A stretch of 28,733 nucleotides of DNA, from contig RDOA01000047.1 in assembly GCA_011364925.1 (NCBI GenBank), positions 1-28,733 on the forward strand, given 5' to 3'. Source of the stretch: Promethearchaeota archaeon. Lineage in GTDB: Archaea; Asgardarchaeota; Lokiarchaeia; Sigyniarchaeales; SOKP01. The notes beneath the pieces are model-generated. The model ran no database searches. It was not told the origin of the DNA and was given only the letters and a program-made list of their open reading frames with translations. This document shows positions 2-28,403 of this stretch, one piece after another (position 1 is the first letter of the stretch; every line of letters starts with the position of its first letter). Both the position numbers and the translations under genes were made by a program.

Positions 2-2230
2 GTAGTCATCTCTGAGTATCTCGTGTCAAATCTTTCAAATATTACTAGCCTGAAAATCGTAGACTTTTGGGATGTTAATTTACACCCCCTTACTAAGTCG
101 TTAATTGTAACCTGGAATAAGCGTAAAAAGTTTGGGATATCCAAATTACTAAATATTGCTGGAAAGATGGTAAAATTCTTATTTCGAATAATTAGAAACG
201 ATACTGAAACTGTCAGAAGGAGGTTTGCGAAAAAATTTGAGTATAGTTTTGCTCTTAATTCTGAGCTAAATGTTATTATTATGACTCCAAAATATAAGAA
301 AAAACCACCTATTGAAAGAAATGAGCCAAGTAAGCACGATTATTATCCCAAAGCCCTTTTCTTAGCTATACTTAACCAAAAAGATGCAAAATTTTTCATA
401 AGTAAACAAGATCTATTCGAAGGGACTGATGTCTTAATTAACTGGGAATCGAGTGATAATACACGGAAGATTAAAAAGAGTGATTTGTGCTTGGGAGCGG
501 GAGTTAGCCTTAATTTAAATAGCAGAGAGAATTGTAGGGTTGTTACGCTATTTGGATACGAAGAGACGGATAAGATTGAAGCTTTAATTAAAAAATACAA
601 GAAAATTGTTGGGGAACAATCGATACTTGAATGGAATGCAAATCCGTGGAAAACTTCGTTTATTAATTTAAATGTAAAAGGTGAACCCCAAATGTCTCGC
701 GAAAGCATGTGGCATTCGTATTATACTCGTAGTGCTTTAATCTACGACGAATATTATAAAAATCACCGACTCCATCAAGGATCAATTTACTTGTTTGGAC
801 ATGGTATTGACGGATCAATTCGGGATTACATTCTATACCTTAATTCTCTCATCTTGCTTAACCCTTCAATCGCAAGAGAATTCTTACTTTTCAATTTATC
901 GTTAATATTTTCTGATGGAAAATTACCATATTCTTTATACGGTTATGGTAAAATTTCTTCCGTTATTGTTCATTCTAAACCATCAGATTTATACTTATTT
1001 TTATTATGGGGTATTGATCAATACATATCTTTAACTAGGGATTTCGAACTACTTGATGTTACTCTACCTTTTTGCGACAAACCACATACTAAAGGAACAA
1101 CCATACTTGAAAAGATTAAATTATTAATTGCGTATCTCTTTTCAGAAGAAGTTGGGATTGGAGAACACGGTCTTATCAAATGCAACGATGGTGATTGGTC
1201 TGATGGTATCTCTTTAATGGTAAAAAACCGAAGGAAGTTTATAAAGAAAGGAGAATCTAATTTTAACTCTACTTTTGCTCTCTATATTATCCCAAGAGTG
1301 CTGAAGTTGTTGAAAGATTTTGATAGTCAATTTAAAAACTTTATAGAAGATAAAATGAAATCGTTAGAACAAGCAGTTCTTAATTCTTATAATGGAAAGT
1401 GGTTCTTTCGAGGTTGGGATGGCCAAGGACATCCTTTAGGTGATCAATCCTTATATTTAGAGCATCATACCTGGTTATTAATCGCAAAAGTTTTAGAAAA
1501 TGAAAAAGTTGAGAATATTATAAACCAGATTTATAATACTTTAGATAAACCTTCCTCAATTGGTCAATATATAAGTTTTCCTCCCCAAAAAACGTATTTA
1601 AATATTCTTCCTAAAGGGTGGGATGTAAATGGAGGCATTTGGCACGCAATGAACGCGTTGCTCACTTGGGGATATTCAAATTACGATGAAAAAAAAGCGT
1701 TCAACTCCTTGGTAAAAAACTCTTTAGCTAAAAGAGCGGAAATATATCCAAAAATATGGTATGGAATTTGGAGCGCCCCTGATTCTTACATTGCAGATTA
1801 CGCTGAAAATGCAGGAGAGGCTTTCTATCACTTCGCAACTCCAATGTGTGATTTCCCGATAATGAATTTGAATGCCCACGCCAGCTATTTACTAAGCGTA
1901 ATCAAAATCGCTGGAATTGAAGCGGATTTTTCTGGATTAGTTATTAATCCTCATGTCTTGAATCAAGAATTTACTTTTAATTCACCTTTAATATCATTGG
2001 AATCAAATGTAGATAACTTTACTCTAAAGTATAAAATTACTGCTGATAGAGATTATAGGCTTCGAATTAAAAAACCAAAATGGTGGAACATACGATCAAA
2101 AATTTATTTAAACGGAAACACAGCTGTAACTTATTCTCAAAACAGTGAAGCGTCTAATGAGTTCATCGAGATTAATATTCCTTCTAAAATTAGACCTGTA
2201 ATAATTAAGTTAACTAAAAATGAGAGTTAG
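2..2230 (+). CDS. GH94-like glycoside phosphorylase/hydrolase (cellobiose phosphorylase-like), probably 5'-partial
   Basis: GEHGL...DGDWSDG resembles the GH94 catalytic GDWND motif. WFFRGW and NGGIWH resemble GH94 (alpha/alpha)6-barrel motifs. The frame is open from base 2, so the GTG at 23 may not be the real start. Confidence 0.7.
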   Translation, partial: VVISEYLVSNLSNITSLKIVDFWDVNLHPLTKSLIVTWNKRKKFGISKLLNIAGKMVKFLFRIIRNDTETVRRRFAKKFEYSFALNSELNVIIMTPKYKKKPPIERNEPSKHDYYPKALFLAILNQKDAKFFISKQDLFEGTDVLINWESSDNTRKIKKSDLCLGAGVSLNLNSRENCRVVTLFGYEETDKIEALIKKYKKIVGEQSILEWNANPWKTSFINLNVKGEPQMSRESMWHSYYTRSALIYDEYYKNHRLHQGSIYLFGHGIDGSIRDYILYLNSLILLNPSIAREFLLFNLSLIFSDGKLPYSLYGYGKISSVIVHSKPSDLYLFLLWGIDQYISLTRDFELLDVTLPFCDKPHTKGTTILEKIKLLIAYLFSEEVGIGEHGLIKCNDGDWSDGISLMVKNRRKFIKKGESNFNSTFALYIIPRVLKLLKDFDSQFKNFIEDKMKSLEQAVLNSYNGKWFFRGWDGQGHPLGDQSLYLEHHTWLLIAKVLENEKVENIINQIYNTLDKPSSIGQYISFPPQKTYLNILPKGWDVNGGIWHAMNALLTWGYSNYDEKKAFNSLVKNSLAKRAEIYPKIWYGIWSAPDSYIADYAENAGEAFYHFATPMCDFPIMNLNAHASYLLSVIKIAGIEADFSGLVINPHVLNQEFTFNSPLISLESNVDNFTLKYKITADRDYRLRIKKPKWWNIRSKIYLNGNTAVTYSQNSEASNEFIEINIPSKIRPVIIKLTKNES

Positions 2231-23437: not shown

Positions 23438-23941
23438 TTATTCTCTTTTATATTTTTTAAGTTTTGGAAAAAGAGCATACACATATTTTTTATAGTGAAT
23501 ATAGTCCTCTCCAAACTTTTCCAAACAGTATTTTTCTTCTGGTATTATGTAGATTCGAAAAAGAATGTAGAATATTATAGGAATAGAAAATAGGAACCAG
23601 CTATTGGATAGACATACGAATCCGGGTGTCATAAATAAAACAAAGGATGAATACACAGGATGCCGCATGTATGCGAAAAATCCAGATGTCAACAGAACTG
23701 ATTTATTGTAAGCCTTTTTTACCGCGGTGATTGATTTAAAATAAATATAAAAGCCTATTACGATTAGAGCTGTCCCTAGGATAATAAGAAATAATGGATT
23801 AATAGGAATTTGAAACAAAGGATAAAAAATTATGTTTATGCCTGCTAAAACTATGATAAAGGGAATGACTGATAAAACTAATTTTGGGCCTACACCATGG
23901 AATGGCATTTTTTTTGAGGACTTTTTATTCTTCGAGCTCAT
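23438..23941 (-). CDS. ICMT/PEMT (Ste14)-family membrane methyltransferase
   Basis: TM helices, LLTSGFFAYMRHPVY and EE..C..KFG..Y..YK. Confidence 0.85.
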   Translation of the reverse strand: MSSKNKKSSKKMPFHGVGPKLVLSVIPFIIVLAGINIIFYPLFQIPINPLFLIILGTALIVIGFYIYFKSITAVKKAYNKSVLLTSGFFAYMRHPVYSSFVLFMTPGFVCLSNSWFLFSIPIIFYILFRIYIIPEEKYCLEKFGEDYIHYKKYVYALFPKLKKYKRE

Positions 23942-23973: not shown

Positions 23974-25425
23974 TTAATAAGGACAACTAAAATCACTCTC
24001 AAGCCAATCACCTGTCATATTGTAAGCTGTTAAACGGCAACCACCACAAAATTCTTTGCCGAAACAACGAGCACATTTTCCTTTCTTTTTTCTACGTTCA
24101 CGGATAAGATTTAATGTTGAATTATTTAACCAAATATCGTGAAGGCCTTGATTTAAAATATTTCCTAATTTGATATGACTAGAGGTTGCACATGGAAGAA
24201 CATTCCCTTGACTATCTAAACCAATATAAAATAATCCTGCTGCACAGCCACTAAACACTGAAGAGATTCTTTGGATAAAATTCGCAATCTTATTCTCAAA
24301 AGCGTCTGTTAGCTTAGTTTCATAACCAGTAATGAGTTCACAAAGCGGATAGATACTCCCACTGCTTAATTCATAACATATTCTACTAAAATAAGGCATG
24401 CCTCGAGTAATGACCATAATTTCATCTTTATCGCGAACAGACTTTATTAATTTCTGTGCGAGTAATTTTAACACATTTCTTTTTACTTCAGGGCTGGGGT
24501 CGTGCTTAATATAAGATTTACCTCTTCCCACAGGGAGTAATCTTCCAAGGTAATACCTTGTTGCCCCTAATTCTTTAACGTAATCGTATAATAGAGGTAC
24601 TTCGGAGTGATTATAATCTGTAAGAGTGGTGGCAATAATTAATTCGTCAAATTTTCCAAATTCGGCTGCTACTTTAATTCCATTAATCGTCATATCGTAA
24701 GCACCTTTTACGTTCCTAAGATGATCGTGGCTTTTTGCAGATAGTCCATCTAAACTTATCGTAATTGAACGAACACCAGAATTATATAATTCTTCGCACA
24801 CTTCTTTATTTAACAAGGTTGCATTTGTAGAAATTGAAGGGGAGATACCAAAATCTCGAGCATAACTAATTAACTCAAACAAATCGTTTCGCATAAGCGG
24901 TTCTCCTCCGCAAAAGTTAAGCGTAATAATATCATTCGCTGCTAACATTCTTATAACTTTTTTCGCTTCTTTTGTAGATAAATCAGACTCTGAATGCTGA
25001 TTAAAATTAGCGTCTGCGAAACAATGCGAACACTTTAAATTGCAATTCGATGTAACATTCCATACTACGCTTAATGGAGCCCCCATTGTGAAGGGTTTTC
25101 TTAAACCAAACAAAGCTAAACCTTTAAAGAAATTCTTAATAACTCTTCGAGTTCTAGTATTTGAATAGAATTGACTTATTTTATTTAATTCAAAACCATA
25201 TACAAAAAAGAACATTTTGATGATAATAGAAAGAATACCTGCTTTTAATCGACATTTTAAGCAAATTTCACCCTTATTTTTTTTTTCTTCAATCAGATAT
25301 GAAATTGCAACATCATACCTAGTAGACTTGCATTTATGGCAATATTTAGAATAATTTCTTCCCAATGTCTGAAGAATCTGCTTCAAAAATGGCGCTTGAT
25401 AAATATTTCTACTTAGTACAACCAT
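23974..25425 (-). CDS. Radical SAM protein with SPASM domain (NirJ/Ahb/PqqE-like superfamily)
   Basis: CNLKCSHC, GGEPL, STNA and ISLDG; SPASM GCAAG...PC...KCARC....CGGCR...D..CP; extra N-terminal CxxC...CxxC. ATG 25425 is preferred (ORF track start 25443 overlaps the upstream gene). Confidence 0.9.
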   Translation of the reverse strand: MVVLSRNIYQAPFLKQILQTLGRNYSKYCHKCKSTRYDVAISYLIEEKKNKGEICLKCRLKAGILSIIIKMFFFVYGFELNKISQFYSNTRTRRVIKNFFKGLALFGLRKPFTMGAPLSVVWNVTSNCNLKCSHCFADANFNQHSESDLSTKEAKKVIRMLAANDIITLNFCGGEPLMRNDLFELISYARDFGISPSISTNATLLNKEVCEELYNSGVRSITISLDGLSAKSHDHLRNVKGAYDMTINGIKVAAEFGKFDELIIATTLTDYNHSEVPLLYDYVKELGATRYYLGRLLPVGRGKSYIKHDPSPEVKRNVLKLLAQKLIKSVRDKDEIMVITRGMPYFSRICYELSSGSIYPLCELITGYETKLTDAFENKIANFIQRISSVFSGCAAGLFYIGLDSQGNVLPCATSSHIKLGNILNQGLHDIWLNNSTLNLIRERRKKKGKCARCFGKEFCGGCRLTAYNMTGDWLESDFSCPY

Positions 25426-25429
25426 AATC

Positions 25430-27415
25430 TCAACCAGTAGCATTTAATATAATATTAGCTTTATCTATTGAATAAACTTTTTTAATTGATTTTCTAATAA
25501 ATGTCTTTATCTGTTTTGGAACTAGAGGATGAGATCGAAATCCCGATCCACTATGGGTTGAAGCCAGAAATCTAACTATCCTTGCTCGCTTTTTATTTTT
25601 GATCATTTCAAGAGTTTCAAGGAAAAGTTTTACATCGTTCTCATCGTTCTGCAACCCTAGGCTCATTCGAATGAGTCCAGGTAAATATATTGCACCTAAA
25701 GTGGGAATAAACATCATGTATAATTTAGCAAAGAACTGCCTAACAGGGTGAATCCCAATCAAATTTTTTACTAATAGATGGGCACAAAAACAACCACTAC
25801 GAACACCTATTCCACTATGTTCTGCAAGTTCTCTTGCTACTAAGTTGTAAGGAACCTTTTTAAGACTAAATGAGATGACTCCCCCTCTTCTTAGAAATCT
25901 TTCATCATTCGTGTCCTGAATTCCATAAATCTCAATATCGGACATATCAGTAAGCCCATTTAAAGCAATCCGAGTCAATTTTCGTTCCTCTTGTTCAATT
26001 ATATTCATTCCTATTTTTTTCAAGAGAAGGAAGGCTTTTCCTAAAGTTGCAATCCCTACCAAATTCTCTTCTCCGGAAGAATTGATTTTTTCTAGCATTT
26101 TTTTGCTTATTTGTAAGAGGTTTTTTCTTATCACTAACACGCCACTTCCAAAAGGTGCATACATTTTGTGTCCTGAAAACGCAAAGTAATCTATTCCAAT
26201 TTTGCTTAGAGAAACACTTCGGTGAGCTACCATTTGTGCTCCATCGACGAGAAGTTGAGCGCCATACTTATGCGTAATTCTACTAATCTCTTTTAAATCG
26301 TTAAAGCTTCCCACTACATTTGAAGCACCACACATACTAACTAAAAATATTCTTTTATTCTTATGAGATTTAGTATGATTATACTCTTTCAAGATAGTTT
26401 CTAATTCTCCTAAGTCTAAAAAGCCATCGTCATCGACAAATAATCTGATAAGAGATAGATTGGGAACATATCGCCAAGGAAGCTCATTTGAATGATGGTC
26501 TAATAATGAATTAACCACTACCGGTTCAAAATTTCCTATGAAACTTTTCTGTATGAGAGAGGCTAAAATGTTTATAGATTCAGTAGTATTGGATGTAAAA
26601 ATTATCTCATAGTCTTTTATAGGGGCATCTAGAAAATCAGCGCAAATAGTTCTAACTTCTTCTAGCAATTCGATTCTTTTATTGAAGGGTATTTTTAAAA
26701 CTTTAGAAAATATGTTCCATATGGGGAAAAATGTTGGAGTAGTTGCGGCATTATCTAAATTCGTATAAGATTGTAATCCGTGTCCAGTAGGAATTCGAAT
26801 CTCGTGACCAATCCAAACCTTTCGAAGTTCCTTTATCAATATTTCTCCAGATTTTCCTGAATAATTATCTTCATACAGAATTTCCTTTATAGAAAAGTTA
26901 TCATCGTAATTTGGGCTAAAATTATTCACATCGGAATGTTTAATCAATTGTAGAGCCCTTGCAAAACAAATGACATTATTAATACTTGGGGTTCCTGCTT
27001 CAAATCTTTCGGGAATATCCGATAAGATTACAGATTTTGGTGAAACATATTTGATTATTCCTCCACCTGAATCAAAATTATTAATCGAAATTAAAGCTTT
27101 CTTTCTCACTATGAAAGCATTAACTCCTAGAGGTAAATTTATATCACTACTGGAAAGAATTCTGTATTTATCTGGTTTAAAATAGCCCTCAAAGAGTTTT
27201 AACCGCCTAAGAGAACAGAATATAACGGTGTATTCTTTTTTCGATAATTTAAGATAATCCAGAACTATTTCTCTAGCAATCTCAAATAGTTCCGTAGTAA
27301 CCATCGAAAAATGACCAGTACCTCTGTGAATGTTGGAATAAGTCTGCAAAGCTGAATATACACTTTTTTCCAATATTAAATATGGATCGTATTGTTTTGA
27401 CTCTAATTCTAACAT
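25430..27415 (-). CDS. Class V PLP enzyme, SufS/selenocysteine-lyase-like, with a degenerate N-terminal duplicate domain
   Basis: LDNAATT, NTTESIN, HHSNELPW, DGAQ, FSGHK (PLP Lys) and RSGCFCAH (group II persulfide Cys motif). The N-terminal ~160 aa carry YSNIHRG and GGG...RFEAGTP. Confidence 0.88.
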   Translation of the reverse strand: MLELESKQYDPYLILEKSVYSALQTYSNIHRGTGHFSMVTTELFEIAREIVLDYLKLSKKEYTVIFCSLRRLKLFEGYFKPDKYRILSSSDINLPLGVNAFIVRKKALISINNFDSGGGIIKYVSPKSVILSDIPERFEAGTPSINNVICFARALQLIKHSDVNNFSPNYDDNFSIKEILYEDNYSGKSGEILIKELRKVWIGHEIRIPTGHGLQSYTNLDNAATTPTFFPIWNIFSKVLKIPFNKRIELLEEVRTICADFLDAPIKDYEIIFTSNTTESINILASLIQKSFIGNFEPVVVNSLLDHHSNELPWRYVPNLSLIRLFVDDDGFLDLGELETILKEYNHTKSHKNKRIFLVSMCGASNVVGSFNDLKEISRITHKYGAQLLVDGAQMVAHRSVSLSKIGIDYFAFSGHKMYAPFGSGVLVIRKNLLQISKKMLEKINSSGEENLVGIATLGKAFLLLKKIGMNIIEQEERKLTRIALNGLTDMSDIEIYGIQDTNDERFLRRGGVISFSLKKVPYNLVARELAEHSGIGVRSGCFCAHLLVKNLIGIHPVRQFFAKLYMMFIPTLGAIYLPGLIRMSLGLQNDENDVKLFLETLEMIKNKKRARIVRFLASTHSGSGFRSHPLVPKQIKTFIRKSIKKVYSIDKANIILNATG

Positions 27416-28010: not shown

Positions 28011-28403
28011 TTAAGGAAAATTATATGTCACGTTAACTTTCACTTCTGGGATAAAGCTGTGCTTTATTGGACATAAATCACCATTCTTTTCTATGGCTTT
28101 TTTCCATTTTTCTTCATAATTCTTCGGCATATTAAACACTAAATTTATTTCTTCTACATGCTTAGGGCCCATTATGGTTTCCACATTTATTAAGGTATTT
28201 TTCATATCTATGTCATGTCTCATCGCAAAATTACCAATTGAAATAAGCATACATCCAGCAACTGAAGCGCCCAAGGCATCGCCTGGAGAGAATTCTTCTC
28301 CTTTCCCTGTGTATGGACAGTCCATTGCGATTTTATTATTGTTTTTCAACCTCACAGCATTGCAATGCTGCATATCATCATAAATAACTTCAACTTTTGC
28401 CAT
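28011..28403 (-). CDS. OsmC/Ohr family protein
   Basis: FSPGDALGASVAGCM and CPIKHS, the two conserved Cys motifs. Confidence 0.88.
   Translation of the reverse strand: MAKVEVIYDDMQHCNAVRLKNNNKIAMDCPYTGKGEEFSPGDALGASVAGCMLISIGNFAMRHDIDMKNTLINVETIMGPKHVEEINLVFNMPKNYEEKWKKAIEKNGDLCPIKHSFIPEVKVNVTYNFP

Follow-up and report, generated by a model that had tools for sequence, protein, structure and literature searches.

Fold-type-I PLP enzymes are obligate dimers because each active site takes residues from the partner subunit. The gene at 25430..27415 of the 28,733-nt window, by which we mean the whole stretch of DNA analysed here, raises the question of whether one polypeptide can bring its own partner, as a first-pass annotation had proposed. 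On computational evidence, we consider it probable that the product folds as a pseudo-dimer within one chain, a type II (SufS-like) PLP enzyme that has just one active site.

According to this proposal, catalysis falls to the C-module (residues 190-610), with K417 as PLP lysine, the other residues that bind PLP, R583 as the arginine for the substrate carboxylate and C544 as catalytic cysteine, both elements that a SufS subunit normally gives to its partner having gone. The N-module (residues 1-175) would be a second copy with the PLP core excised, in which only the scaffold of the dimer interface and the elements that act in trans remain, namely the N-x-H-R-G loop, the β-latch (Gly-rich loop, β-hairpin and cis-Pro) and the FEAGTP threonine. 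It would occupy the pseudo-two-fold position on the C-module and complete that one site in cis, with the C-terminal tail (611-661) covering the N-module surface exposed by the deletion.

Two complementary modules in one reading frame

The reading frame is open throughout, and its 661-aa product can be divided as follows:

25430..27415, (-) strand: whole gene (P0001), a two-module class V PLP enzyme of 661 aa (profile matches, full-length homologues)
26891..27415, (-) strand: N-module, residues 1-175, a SufS copy with an internal deletion (profile, phmmer, predicted fold)
26849..26932, (-) strand: linker joining the modules, residues 162-189 (predicted fold, structural alignment)
25586..26848, (-) strand: C-module, residues 190-610, a whole SufS-type protomer that has neither HRG loop nor hairpin/EAGT segment (structural alignment)
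25433..25585, (-) strand: C-terminal tail, residues 611-661 (predicted fold, predicted interface, homologue alignment)

Taking a profile match over the gathering score as the measure of membership, the protein belongs to PF00266 (aminotransferase class V; cut-off 21.5 bits): the whole chain scores 248.4 bits, and the N part alone reaches 53.9 bits. Aligned separately, as the first-pass annotation had recommended, each half matches Pfam Aminotran_5 far beyond chance, with E-values of 1.9e-14 for the N part (residues 94-165 on profile positions 204-275) and 5e-59 for the C part (profile positions 42-371). The modules also resemble each other directly, residues 42-68 and 249-275 being 44% identical (E = 0.001).

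The modules were mapped onto SufS by a phmmer search of the 661-aa protein against PDB SufS chains. Four stretches were recovered, collinear within each module and complementary between them: query 10-56 and 108-158 (N-module) correspond to SufS 51-97 and 259-308, and query 258-436 and 457-562 (C-module) to SufS 83-252 and 293-398. SufS ~98-258 is skipped by the N-module, and residues 1-175 match only the SufS segments ~51-97 and 259-308, which hold the N-x-H-R-G loop, the Gly-rich loop, the β-hairpin and FEAGTP. SufS ~253-292 is skipped by the C-module, which, as the earlier reading had it, lacks the HRG loop and carries SSGEEN in place of GGG-hairpin-RFEAGTP. The earlier description of two unequal class V modules with complementary content is thus borne out by the four stretches, and the proposed loss of the PLP lysine from the N-module by an alignment of SSSDINLPLGV with SGHKMYAPFGS in which D91 falls opposite K417 (register +326). 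The parts of the SufS fold kept in the N-module are helix 11-24 and the HRG loop, helix 35-54, strands 62-67, 84-88 and 99-104, helix 69-78 and, beyond the Gly loop, hairpin and FEAGTP that it also retains, helix 145-161.

Reciprocal conservation and known relatives

The motifs quoted in the first-pass annotation (YSNIHRG, GGG...RFEAGTP, LDNAATTP, FSGHK, SSGEEN and RSGCFCAH) all lie where it had put them. They and the neighbouring elements are distributed as follows:

27314..27340, (-) strand: Y-S-N-I-H-R-G-T-G loop, residues 26-34, counterpart of the SufS H55/R56 loop and part of the predicted interface (YSNIHRG itself is residues 26-32, nt 27320-27340)
27125..27154, (-) strand: SSSDINLPLG, residues 88-97, a degenerate copy of the SGHK-YAPFG strand, predicted to contact the SGEEN segment of the C-module
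26987..27067, (-) strand: Gly-rich loop G117-G119, β-hairpin 121-131, P135 and F138-E-A-G-T-P143, the β-latch and phosphate-Thr elements (GGG...RFEAGTP is residues 117-143)
26165..26176, (-) strand: PLP lysine motif S414-G-H-K417, from sequence and homologue alignment (FSGHK is residues 413-417)
26063..26080, (-) strand: S446-S-G-E-E-N451, a conserved short substitute for GGG-hairpin-RFEAGTP, with N451 invariant
25778..25801, (-) strand: catalytic Cys loop R539-S-G-C542-F-C544-A-H546, with C544 aligned to SufS C364
25679..25750, (-) strand: family-specific insert of ~24 aa, residues 556-579, after the Cys-loop helix, modelled as two short helices

LDNAATTP, at residues 220-227, begins at nt 26758.

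Conservation was assessed across 113 full-length homologues (46-75% identity). Invariant N-module positions are Y26, N28, R31, G32, G117, G118, P135 (at the cis-Pro position), F138, E139, G141, T142 and P143; within the HRG loop G34 is invariant as well, and H30 is kept in 107 of the 113 sequences. In the C-module the invariant residues are N276, H307, D391, Q394, H416, K417, C542 (the second cysteine of the Cys loop), C544, H546 and R583. The trans-acting elements are therefore invariant in the N-module only and the catalytic residues in the C-module only, so the reciprocal motif loss that homologues had been expected to keep holds throughout the set. The N-module position equivalent to the lysine is Asp or Glu in 102 of the 113 homologues.

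Could the N-module be a functionless vestige of a tandem duplicate, or the gene an assembly chimera? Broken homologues do exist, one in which a lone in-frame stop takes the place of the Tyr217 codon (L027), one with a frameshift (L026) and one with a TAA within the match (G129). The frame is intact here, however, and more than 100 full-length homologues from many phyla, covering 96-99% of the query, have invariant N-module motifs; relatives occur in at least 463 species-level genomes of Asgard archaea, Bacteroidales, Chloroflexota and others, and form 186 sequence clusters at 50% identity. The first-pass annotation, which foresaw that long homologues might be in databases, had also named misassembly as a way in which its reading could fail; given the coverage by these homologues, the gene is not a misassembly. 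Artefact or decay is effectively refuted by conservation, and we regard it as next to inconceivable. A naturally split form, with a stand-alone N-module, was not found: the search turned up ten short matches, most of them on contigs shorter than 1.4 kb or labelled partial, and the two that were inspected, L027 and L026, are the broken genes mentioned above.

The C-module has the same fold as SufS/CsdA (E. coli SufS, PDB 1JF9/6MR2; B. subtilis SufS, 5XT5). The protein shares with these enzymes the PLP Lys, the stacking His, the Asp, the Gln, the carboxylate Arg and the short Cys loop, together with all components of the β-latch (Gly-rich loop, hairpin, cis-Pro, α6 E279/N282) and the FEAGTP Thr. 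The residues expected of a type II enzyme around PLP and the substrate carboxylate are present (K417, H307, D391, Q394, H416, R583), and C544 lies on a short rigid loop of the type II kind; the β-latch and EAGT Thr, by contrast, which in type II enzymes are on the PLP-binding module, are found at residues 117-143 of the N-module. The β-latch of SufS forms part of the neighbouring monomer's active site (PMC10011822). Because the trans-acting elements are here on a separate, internally deleted N-terminal copy and not, as in SufS, on the catalytic module, one chain with one site would be expected, compared with two chains and two sites in SufS. Further differences are the Cys motif (GCFCAH, not GHHCA), the insert of ~24 aa after the Cys loop and the 50-aa C-terminal tail; a possible further one is the acceptor, as no SufE match was found in the own genome and no SufU beside the gene. 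The NCBIfam SufS model TIGR01979 gives 252.3 bits over three stretches, below its cut-off of 475.1; with the GCFCAH motif, this suggests that substrate and acceptor may differ from those of SufS.

For the P-protein of glycine cleavage, Nakai et al. (2005) reportedly proposed that one active site was lost after duplication. GcvP/GLDC (split form GcvPA/GcvPB) is a conceptual precedent for a fold-type-I pseudo-dimer: its catalytic copy is the C-terminal one, and the N-terminal copy that partners it is degenerate and has no lysine, the two being joined in one polypeptide or forming an α-β pair (PMC7259800). GcvP belongs to another subfamily. Its N-half is a full-size domain, whereas of the N-module here only 175 aa with the interface elements are left; a split form exists for GcvP and none was found for this desulfurase-like family. 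The resemblance is architectural only: among the GDC-P/GcvPB models the sole match is NF003346, at 16.4 bits against a cut-off of 441. The family 2A encapsulin cargo cysteine desulfurase model NF041166 likewise stays below its cut-off (194.7 of 800 bits). A paralogue in the same genome (L009, contig C27) is a single-module CxC SufS-like class V protein of 575 aa with a GCMCA motif. It has its own GGG-hairpin-AGTP segment, 45% identical to N-module residues 103-157, and all elements in one module, which is 27% identical to the C-module; presumably it is an ordinary homodimer. A literature search brought up no description of a cysteine desulfurase that is pseudo-dimeric or works as a single chain.

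Predicted packing of the N-module on the C-module

AlphaFold2 predicted the full chain as one compact body (pLDDT 88.5, pTM 0.91). In this model residues 190..610 superpose on E. coli SufS 2..406 (370 aligned, rmsd 2.0, Z 32.4-32.8), and the C-module matches SufS structures generally with Z 32-34 and 25-31% identity over 365-379 residues. As the whole SufS chain is thereby covered, the N-module cannot occupy the protomer's own positions. A permuted protomer, in which N-module segments plug gaps of the C-module within a normal dimer, was rejected on the same ground, since 190-610 already amount to an entire SufS chain including the N-terminal helices, and helix α3 and strands a, f and g are duplicated in the N-module. 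Folded alone, the N-module aligns to SufS ~6-314 with Z 8.7-11.2; its HRG loop and residues 116-142 then have pLDDT below 50, compared with 63-90 in the full chain, where the Gly-rich loop/hairpin/FEAGTP region reaches 63-82.

When the modules were given as two chains, the N-module docked on the PLP/Cys active-site face of the C-module with ipSAE 0.92 in three runs, a result to be read as likeness to the SufS dimer and no proof of binding because solved SufS homodimers are among the training data. The best of three controls reached 0.01. Among 80 solved complexes 58 come up to the ipSAE mark, as do 2 among 110 mismatched pairs. The runs have at least 87% of contacts in common, and partner pLDDT was at least 81. 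On the C-module the predicted interface comprises 274-279 (phosphate loop), 307-309 (HHS), S414/H416 and 535-547 including C544; on the N-module it comprises 31-39, 115-129 and 140-147. The SSGEEN segment is predicted to contact N-module P95-G97.

The predicted interface also appears pseudo-symmetric. Contacts between C421/422 and N145/146 are mirrored by those between C452/453 and N95/96 (prefixes denoting the module), C454 and N147, which are equivalent residues, are in contact, and the interface positions of the two modules tend to coincide once both are numbered by equivalence (odds ratio 5.75, Fisher p 1.8e-4). In the model, these reciprocal pairs mark a pseudo-two-fold axis, the geometry being inferred from aligned ranges and the interface list of the complex prediction; docking and pseudo-symmetry alike may stem in part from SufS dimers that the predictor learned in training. 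Modelling thus favours the earlier proposal that the N-module packs against the PLP site. The predictions place helix 633-648 of the tail, whose V647 is kept in 103 of the 113 homologues, against helices 18-22 and 39-43 of the N-module.

Covariation (MI-APC; 227 sequences, Meff 172) links the modules weakly, and the signal may be phylogenetic: the top inter-module pairs join hairpin residues 120-128 with H308, S540, F543 and the insert 556-579, and the predicted interface is enriched in covarying pairs by a factor of only about two.

Two-chain prediction is blind to cis versus trans, and the N-module of each chain could instead complete the C-module of another, giving a domain-swapped homodimer with two sites. 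Characterised fold-type-I enzymes are all at least dimers. GcvP pseudo-dimers dimerise further (PMC7259800). Against such a swap stand the compact single-chain model and its confidently placed linker (pLDDT 80-88, residues 161-190), and the arrangement would be awkward for N+C units inside giant multidomain proteins; we judge it improbable. Such embedded units occur within proteins of 1083-3349 aa; for the four whose source is named, that source is Omnitrophota. The idea that the very long relatives contain PKS "SH-domains" was discarded, as no PKS/NRPS domains were found in the six scanned. The in silico evidence, with a compact monomer around a complete SufS protomer, sides with the first-pass reading of a pseudo-dimer whose site would be completed in cis, and the architecture suggests an origin by tandem duplication followed by reciprocal loss.

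Genomic context and possible chemistry

The own genome contains two canonical NifS/IscS genes with IscU adjoining; of its three NifU_N genes, none is in the window and two adjoin the canonical NifS/IscS genes. No SufE (PF02657) match was found in this genome, which is 100% complete by markers. Given these canonical genes and the occurrence of the family in 7 of 201 genomes sampled within the phylum, the enzyme encoded here is accessory and does not serve as the housekeeping desulfurase. Two genes recur beside it in Asgard loci:

23974..25443, (-) strand: radical SAM/SPASM gene, 489 aa, downstream of the two-module gene and overlapping it
23438..23941, (-) strand: ICMT/PEMT-like membrane methyltransferase, 167 aa

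The Asgard enzyme probably works with these two proteins. In Prolixibacteraceae the gene is in an operon with GNAT, amine oxidase, SQS_PSY and SAM-methyltransferase genes. Contexts are clade-specific, and no family-wide operon partner was found, every neighbour family being present in at most 13 of 87 loci.

The putative chemistry is PLP-dependent cleavage of the C-S (or C-Se) bond in free L-cysteine, selenocysteine or a cysteine derivative, with a persulfide likely formed on C544 and possibly relayed or resolved by C542. The same architecture could instead serve a C-S/C-Se β-lyase that is no cysteine desulfurase: its substrate would be selenocysteine or a cysteine substituted on sulfur, perhaps one linked to a lipid or isoprenoid, and it would feed a methyltransferase. 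We find this rather doubtful: the score under the SufS cut-off, the CxC motif, the family-specific insert by the active site, the failure to find a SufE match in the genome and methyltransferase neighbours in two unrelated contexts (Asgard and Prolixibacteraceae) all fit it, and the covarying hairpin, H308, F543 and insert could reflect differences in specificity, but every SufS catalytic residue is invariant, among them the Cys for the persulfide and the Arg that binds the carboxylate, and the gene context is heterogeneous. The hydrophobic insert itself had been suggested to bind the membrane; its conserved charged and Pro positions (R559, P571, P579 are conserved) and its modelling as two short packed helices lend no support to this or to a transmembrane segment.

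In its fullest form the pseudo-dimer reading is tentative, and we hold it possible without favouring it: no fold-type-I PLP desulfurase/lyase before it would have been a true monomer, and an obligate homodimer would have been turned, by partial duplication within the gene and reciprocal loss, into a one-site cassette able to stand alone or to be built into giant proteins. In Asgard archaea the cassette would deliver S or Se to the radical SAM/SPASM protein and to the neighbouring membrane methyltransferase, from which a methylated sulfur-containing lipid or cofactor would result.

The family is a large natural one in which ~175 partner residues are kept in the same chain, apparently a way round the dimer requirement. 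If confirmed, it would be a clean example of duplication with reciprocal loss and a natural blueprint for single-chain PLP enzymes, and would allow a direct test of the SufS elements acting in trans (H55/R56 loop, β-latch, T278). For Asgard archaea, anaerobic Bacteroidales and Chloroflexota, it would mean an uncharacterised sulfur- or selenium-handling enzyme that the annotation "aminotransferase class V" conceals.

Complementary SufS content of the two modules

The first-pass annotation read the 661-aa SufS-like class V PLP enzyme as two modules with complementary SufS content. Pfam Aminotran_5 matched the whole protein in three stretches, and each half also matched separately: the N-terminal 215 aa alone with an E-value of 1.9e-14 (residues 94-165 on profile 204-275) and the remainder with 5e-59 (profile 42-371). 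Using phmmer against solved SufS chains, we mapped residues 10-56 to SufS 51-97, 108-158 to 259-308, 258-436 to 83-252 and 457-562 to 293-398. The N-module (residues 1-175) is therefore SufS with the PLP core (about 98-258) excised, and the C-module (residues 190-610) is SufS minus the N-x-H-R-G loop and the hairpin/EAGT segment (about 253-292), in whose place stands SGEEN. BLASTP of half against half gave an internal repeat register of +207 for helix/strand a (E 0.001) and of +326 for the lysine strand, which places D91 at the position of the PLP lysine K417. Map and registers together confirm the complementary content, including the proposed absence of PLP core and Lys from the N-module and of HRG loop and hairpin/EAGT segment from the C-module.

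A search of 5.8 billion proteins yielded more than 100 full-length relatives (612-751 aa, 47-75% identity, 90-99% coverage), 113 of which were aligned. The trans-acting motifs are invariant in the N-module only (Y26, N28, R31, G32, G117, G118, P135, F138, E139, G141, T142 and P143, with H30 present in 107/113), and the catalytic set in the C-module only (N276, H307, D391, Q394, H416, K417, R539, C542, C544, H546 and R583). The N-module position equivalent to the PLP lysine is Asp or Glu in 102 of the 113, and the SGEEN replacement is also conserved. Homologues thus keep the reciprocal motif loss, and because this module-specific conservation extends across 113 relatives, a misassembly or a decaying gene is ruled out. 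We looked for a genuine split form among the relatives and found none. Interrupted homologues do occur, with a single in-frame stop at the Tyr217 codon (L027:1548-3449), a frameshift (L026:4001-5190) or one TAA (L020/L023, G129:C36); together with patchiness within genera, they suggest frequent loss of the family.

Predicted docking of the N-module on the PLP site

AF2 with the homologue alignment folded the full chain into one compact body (pLDDT 88.5, pTM 0.91). In VIA-align, model residues 190-610 superposed on E. coli SufS over its full chain, 2-406 (370 aligned, rmsd 2.0, Z 32.4-32.8), with Z up to 33.9 against other SufS chains. Since this span covers the whole SufS chain, the modeled C-module forms a full protomer that starts at its own N-terminus, with the N-module placed outside it, which rules out a simple "permuted protomer" at the level of the model. 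Folded by itself, the N-module retained its scaffold (pLDDT 84-94) and aligned to SufS about 6-314 (Z 8.7-11.2). The HRG loop and residues 116-142 had pLDDT below 50 in the isolated module versus 63-90 in the full chain, the behavior expected if contact with the C-module orders these elements.

We then predicted the N-module and C-module as a two-chain complex with PLP included, in three runs and with three controls. Every run gave an ipSAE of 0.92, against a top control score of 0.01; the mark applied was attained by 58/80 solved complexes and 2/110 mismatched pairs. Contacts agreed between runs at 87% or more, and partner pLDDT was 81 or higher. With SufS homodimers among the solved structures, this predicted docking shows likeness to the SufS homodimer rather than proof of binding. 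To the predicted interface the C-module contributes, among others, its phosphate loop (274-279), H307-S309, S414/H416 and its Cys loop (535-547) with C544, and the N-module, among others, residues 31-39, 115-129 and 140-147, so that the packing of the N-module on the PLP site proposed earlier is reproduced in the model. The best-defined predicted contacts are reciprocal in equivalent numbering (421/422 of the C-module with 145/146 of the N-module, and 452/453 with 95/96), and the equivalent residues 454 and 147 touch each other, in the model the pattern that marks a two-fold axis. The positions used for the interface also coincide from one module to the other (odds ratio 5.75, p 1.8e-4, the positions being interdependent). 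Helix 633-648 near the C-terminus is predicted to pack on N-module helices which the deleted core would otherwise cover.

In sequence-only MI-APC covariation over 227 sequences, the top inter-module pairs joined hairpin 120-128 with H308, S540, F543 and the family-specific 556-579 insert after the Cys-loop helix; enrichment of covarying pairs in the predicted interface was only about two-fold, and phylogenetic signal may contribute. The suggestion that this hydrophobic insert anchors the protein in the membrane was not supported. The cis pseudo-dimer itself is supported, in silico only, by every computation made.

In SufS, the active site of each monomer is built in part from the Gly-rich loop, the beta-hairpin and a cis-Pro of the neighboring one, and the Gly loop is held by alpha6 N99 (PMC10011822). 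Here, alpha6 (E279, N282) belongs to the C-module and the remaining latch to the N-module, with residues 281-283 and 115-119 both within the predicted interface. The two-module enzyme would work like a SufS dimer, yet it lacks two defining traits of SufS: it does not reach the TIGR01979 cut-off, and its PLP-binding module does not carry the beta-latch/EAGT. The nearest architectural precedent is GcvP/GLDC, in which the N-terminal copy lacks the lysine and is paired with the catalytic copy at the C-terminus (PMC7259800). Both halves there are full-size and have no sequence relationship to the present family. Our literature search found no paper on a pseudo-dimeric desulfurase.

Distribution, gene context and possible role

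With the N-module as query, we obtained 620, 186 and 38 clusters (50% identity) at E 1e-3, 1e-10 and 1e-30, respectively; full-length members are mostly 620-700 aa. A scan of species-representative genomes gave at least 463 confirmed relatives, the majority from Bacteroidales, Prolixibacteraceae or Rikenellaceae, or Anaerolineae/Chloroflexia, and others from Acidobacteriota, proteobacterial MAGs and Hermod-, Thor-, Hod- and Promethearchaeota. The family is patchy in the window's phylum (7/201 genomes; 2/16 in its own genus). The window DNA has a low GC content (~33%), and its closest relatives among the matches listed are Candidatus Hermodarchaeota MAGs (73-75% identity). The N+C cassette is also embedded in proteins of 1083-3349 aa, which fits a self-sufficient unit; in the four cases where the source is named, it is Omnitrophota. 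These giant Candidatus Omnitrophota proteins (P0170, P0180, P0235 and P0273; 2150-3349 aa) have an HD domain in one of the four and are without Pfam match elsewhere.

Genes around the PLP gene in the window
23438..23941 (-), ICMT/PEMT-like membrane methyltransferase, next after the radical SAM/SPASM gene
23974..25443 (-), radical SAM/SPASM gene, downstream, with a 14-nt overlap with the PLP gene
25430..27415 (-), PLP gene, ORF of 661 aa
27444-27965 (-), TM/winged-helix/zinc-ribbon protein of 173 aa, upstream
28011-28403 (-), OsmC-like protein, upstream

In the 173-aa protein, a hydrophobic segment lies in the N-terminal part and a zinc ribbon in the C-terminal part, together with a region resembling a winged helix; tblastn with this protein and with the OsmC-like protein matched nothing in the nine related loci used for comparison. 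The top models for the radical SAM/SPASM protein (TIGR04053, AhbD and NirJ) each score below cut-off. At its N-terminus, an extension of ~120 aa contains two CxxC pairs (CHKC...CLKC) and then a hydrophobic stretch, which suggests a zinc ribbon plus membrane anchor.

Over 87 loci, no neighbor family occurs in more than 13. Among Asgard loci, the radical SAM/SPASM gene recurs in 8, usually adjoining the PLP gene on the same strand, and the small methyltransferase recurs nearby in 8 (the window, L001, L004, L022, L023, L036, L070 and L090); in L070, radical SAM, methyltransferase and PLP genes follow contiguously on a single strand. The three may constitute a functional module. In Prolixibacteraceae/Bacteroidota MAGs, the homologue is the final gene of an operon encoding GNAT, amine oxidase (CrtN/HpnE-like), SQS_PSY (squalene/phytoene synthase) and SAM-methyltransferase (L103:3880-9896, L097, L105, L091, L074 and L026), which may point to a connection with isoprenoid or carotenoid modification. 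The thread common to these contexts is a methyltransferase with lipid or isoprenoid enzymes.

The window's own genome also encodes a single-module SufS-like paralogue of 575 aa (contig C27, L009:1045-2769, -) with a PHK lysine, a GGG-hairpin-AGTP segment of its own, the Cys motif GCMCA and a C-terminal extension of ~150 aa; every NCBIfam score is below cut-off. The same genome lacks SufE and carries two NifS/IscS genes of the canonical kind, each close to an IscU gene, and the two-module protein is therefore an accessory enzyme, one that holds real interest for enzymologists working on PLP and Fe-S.
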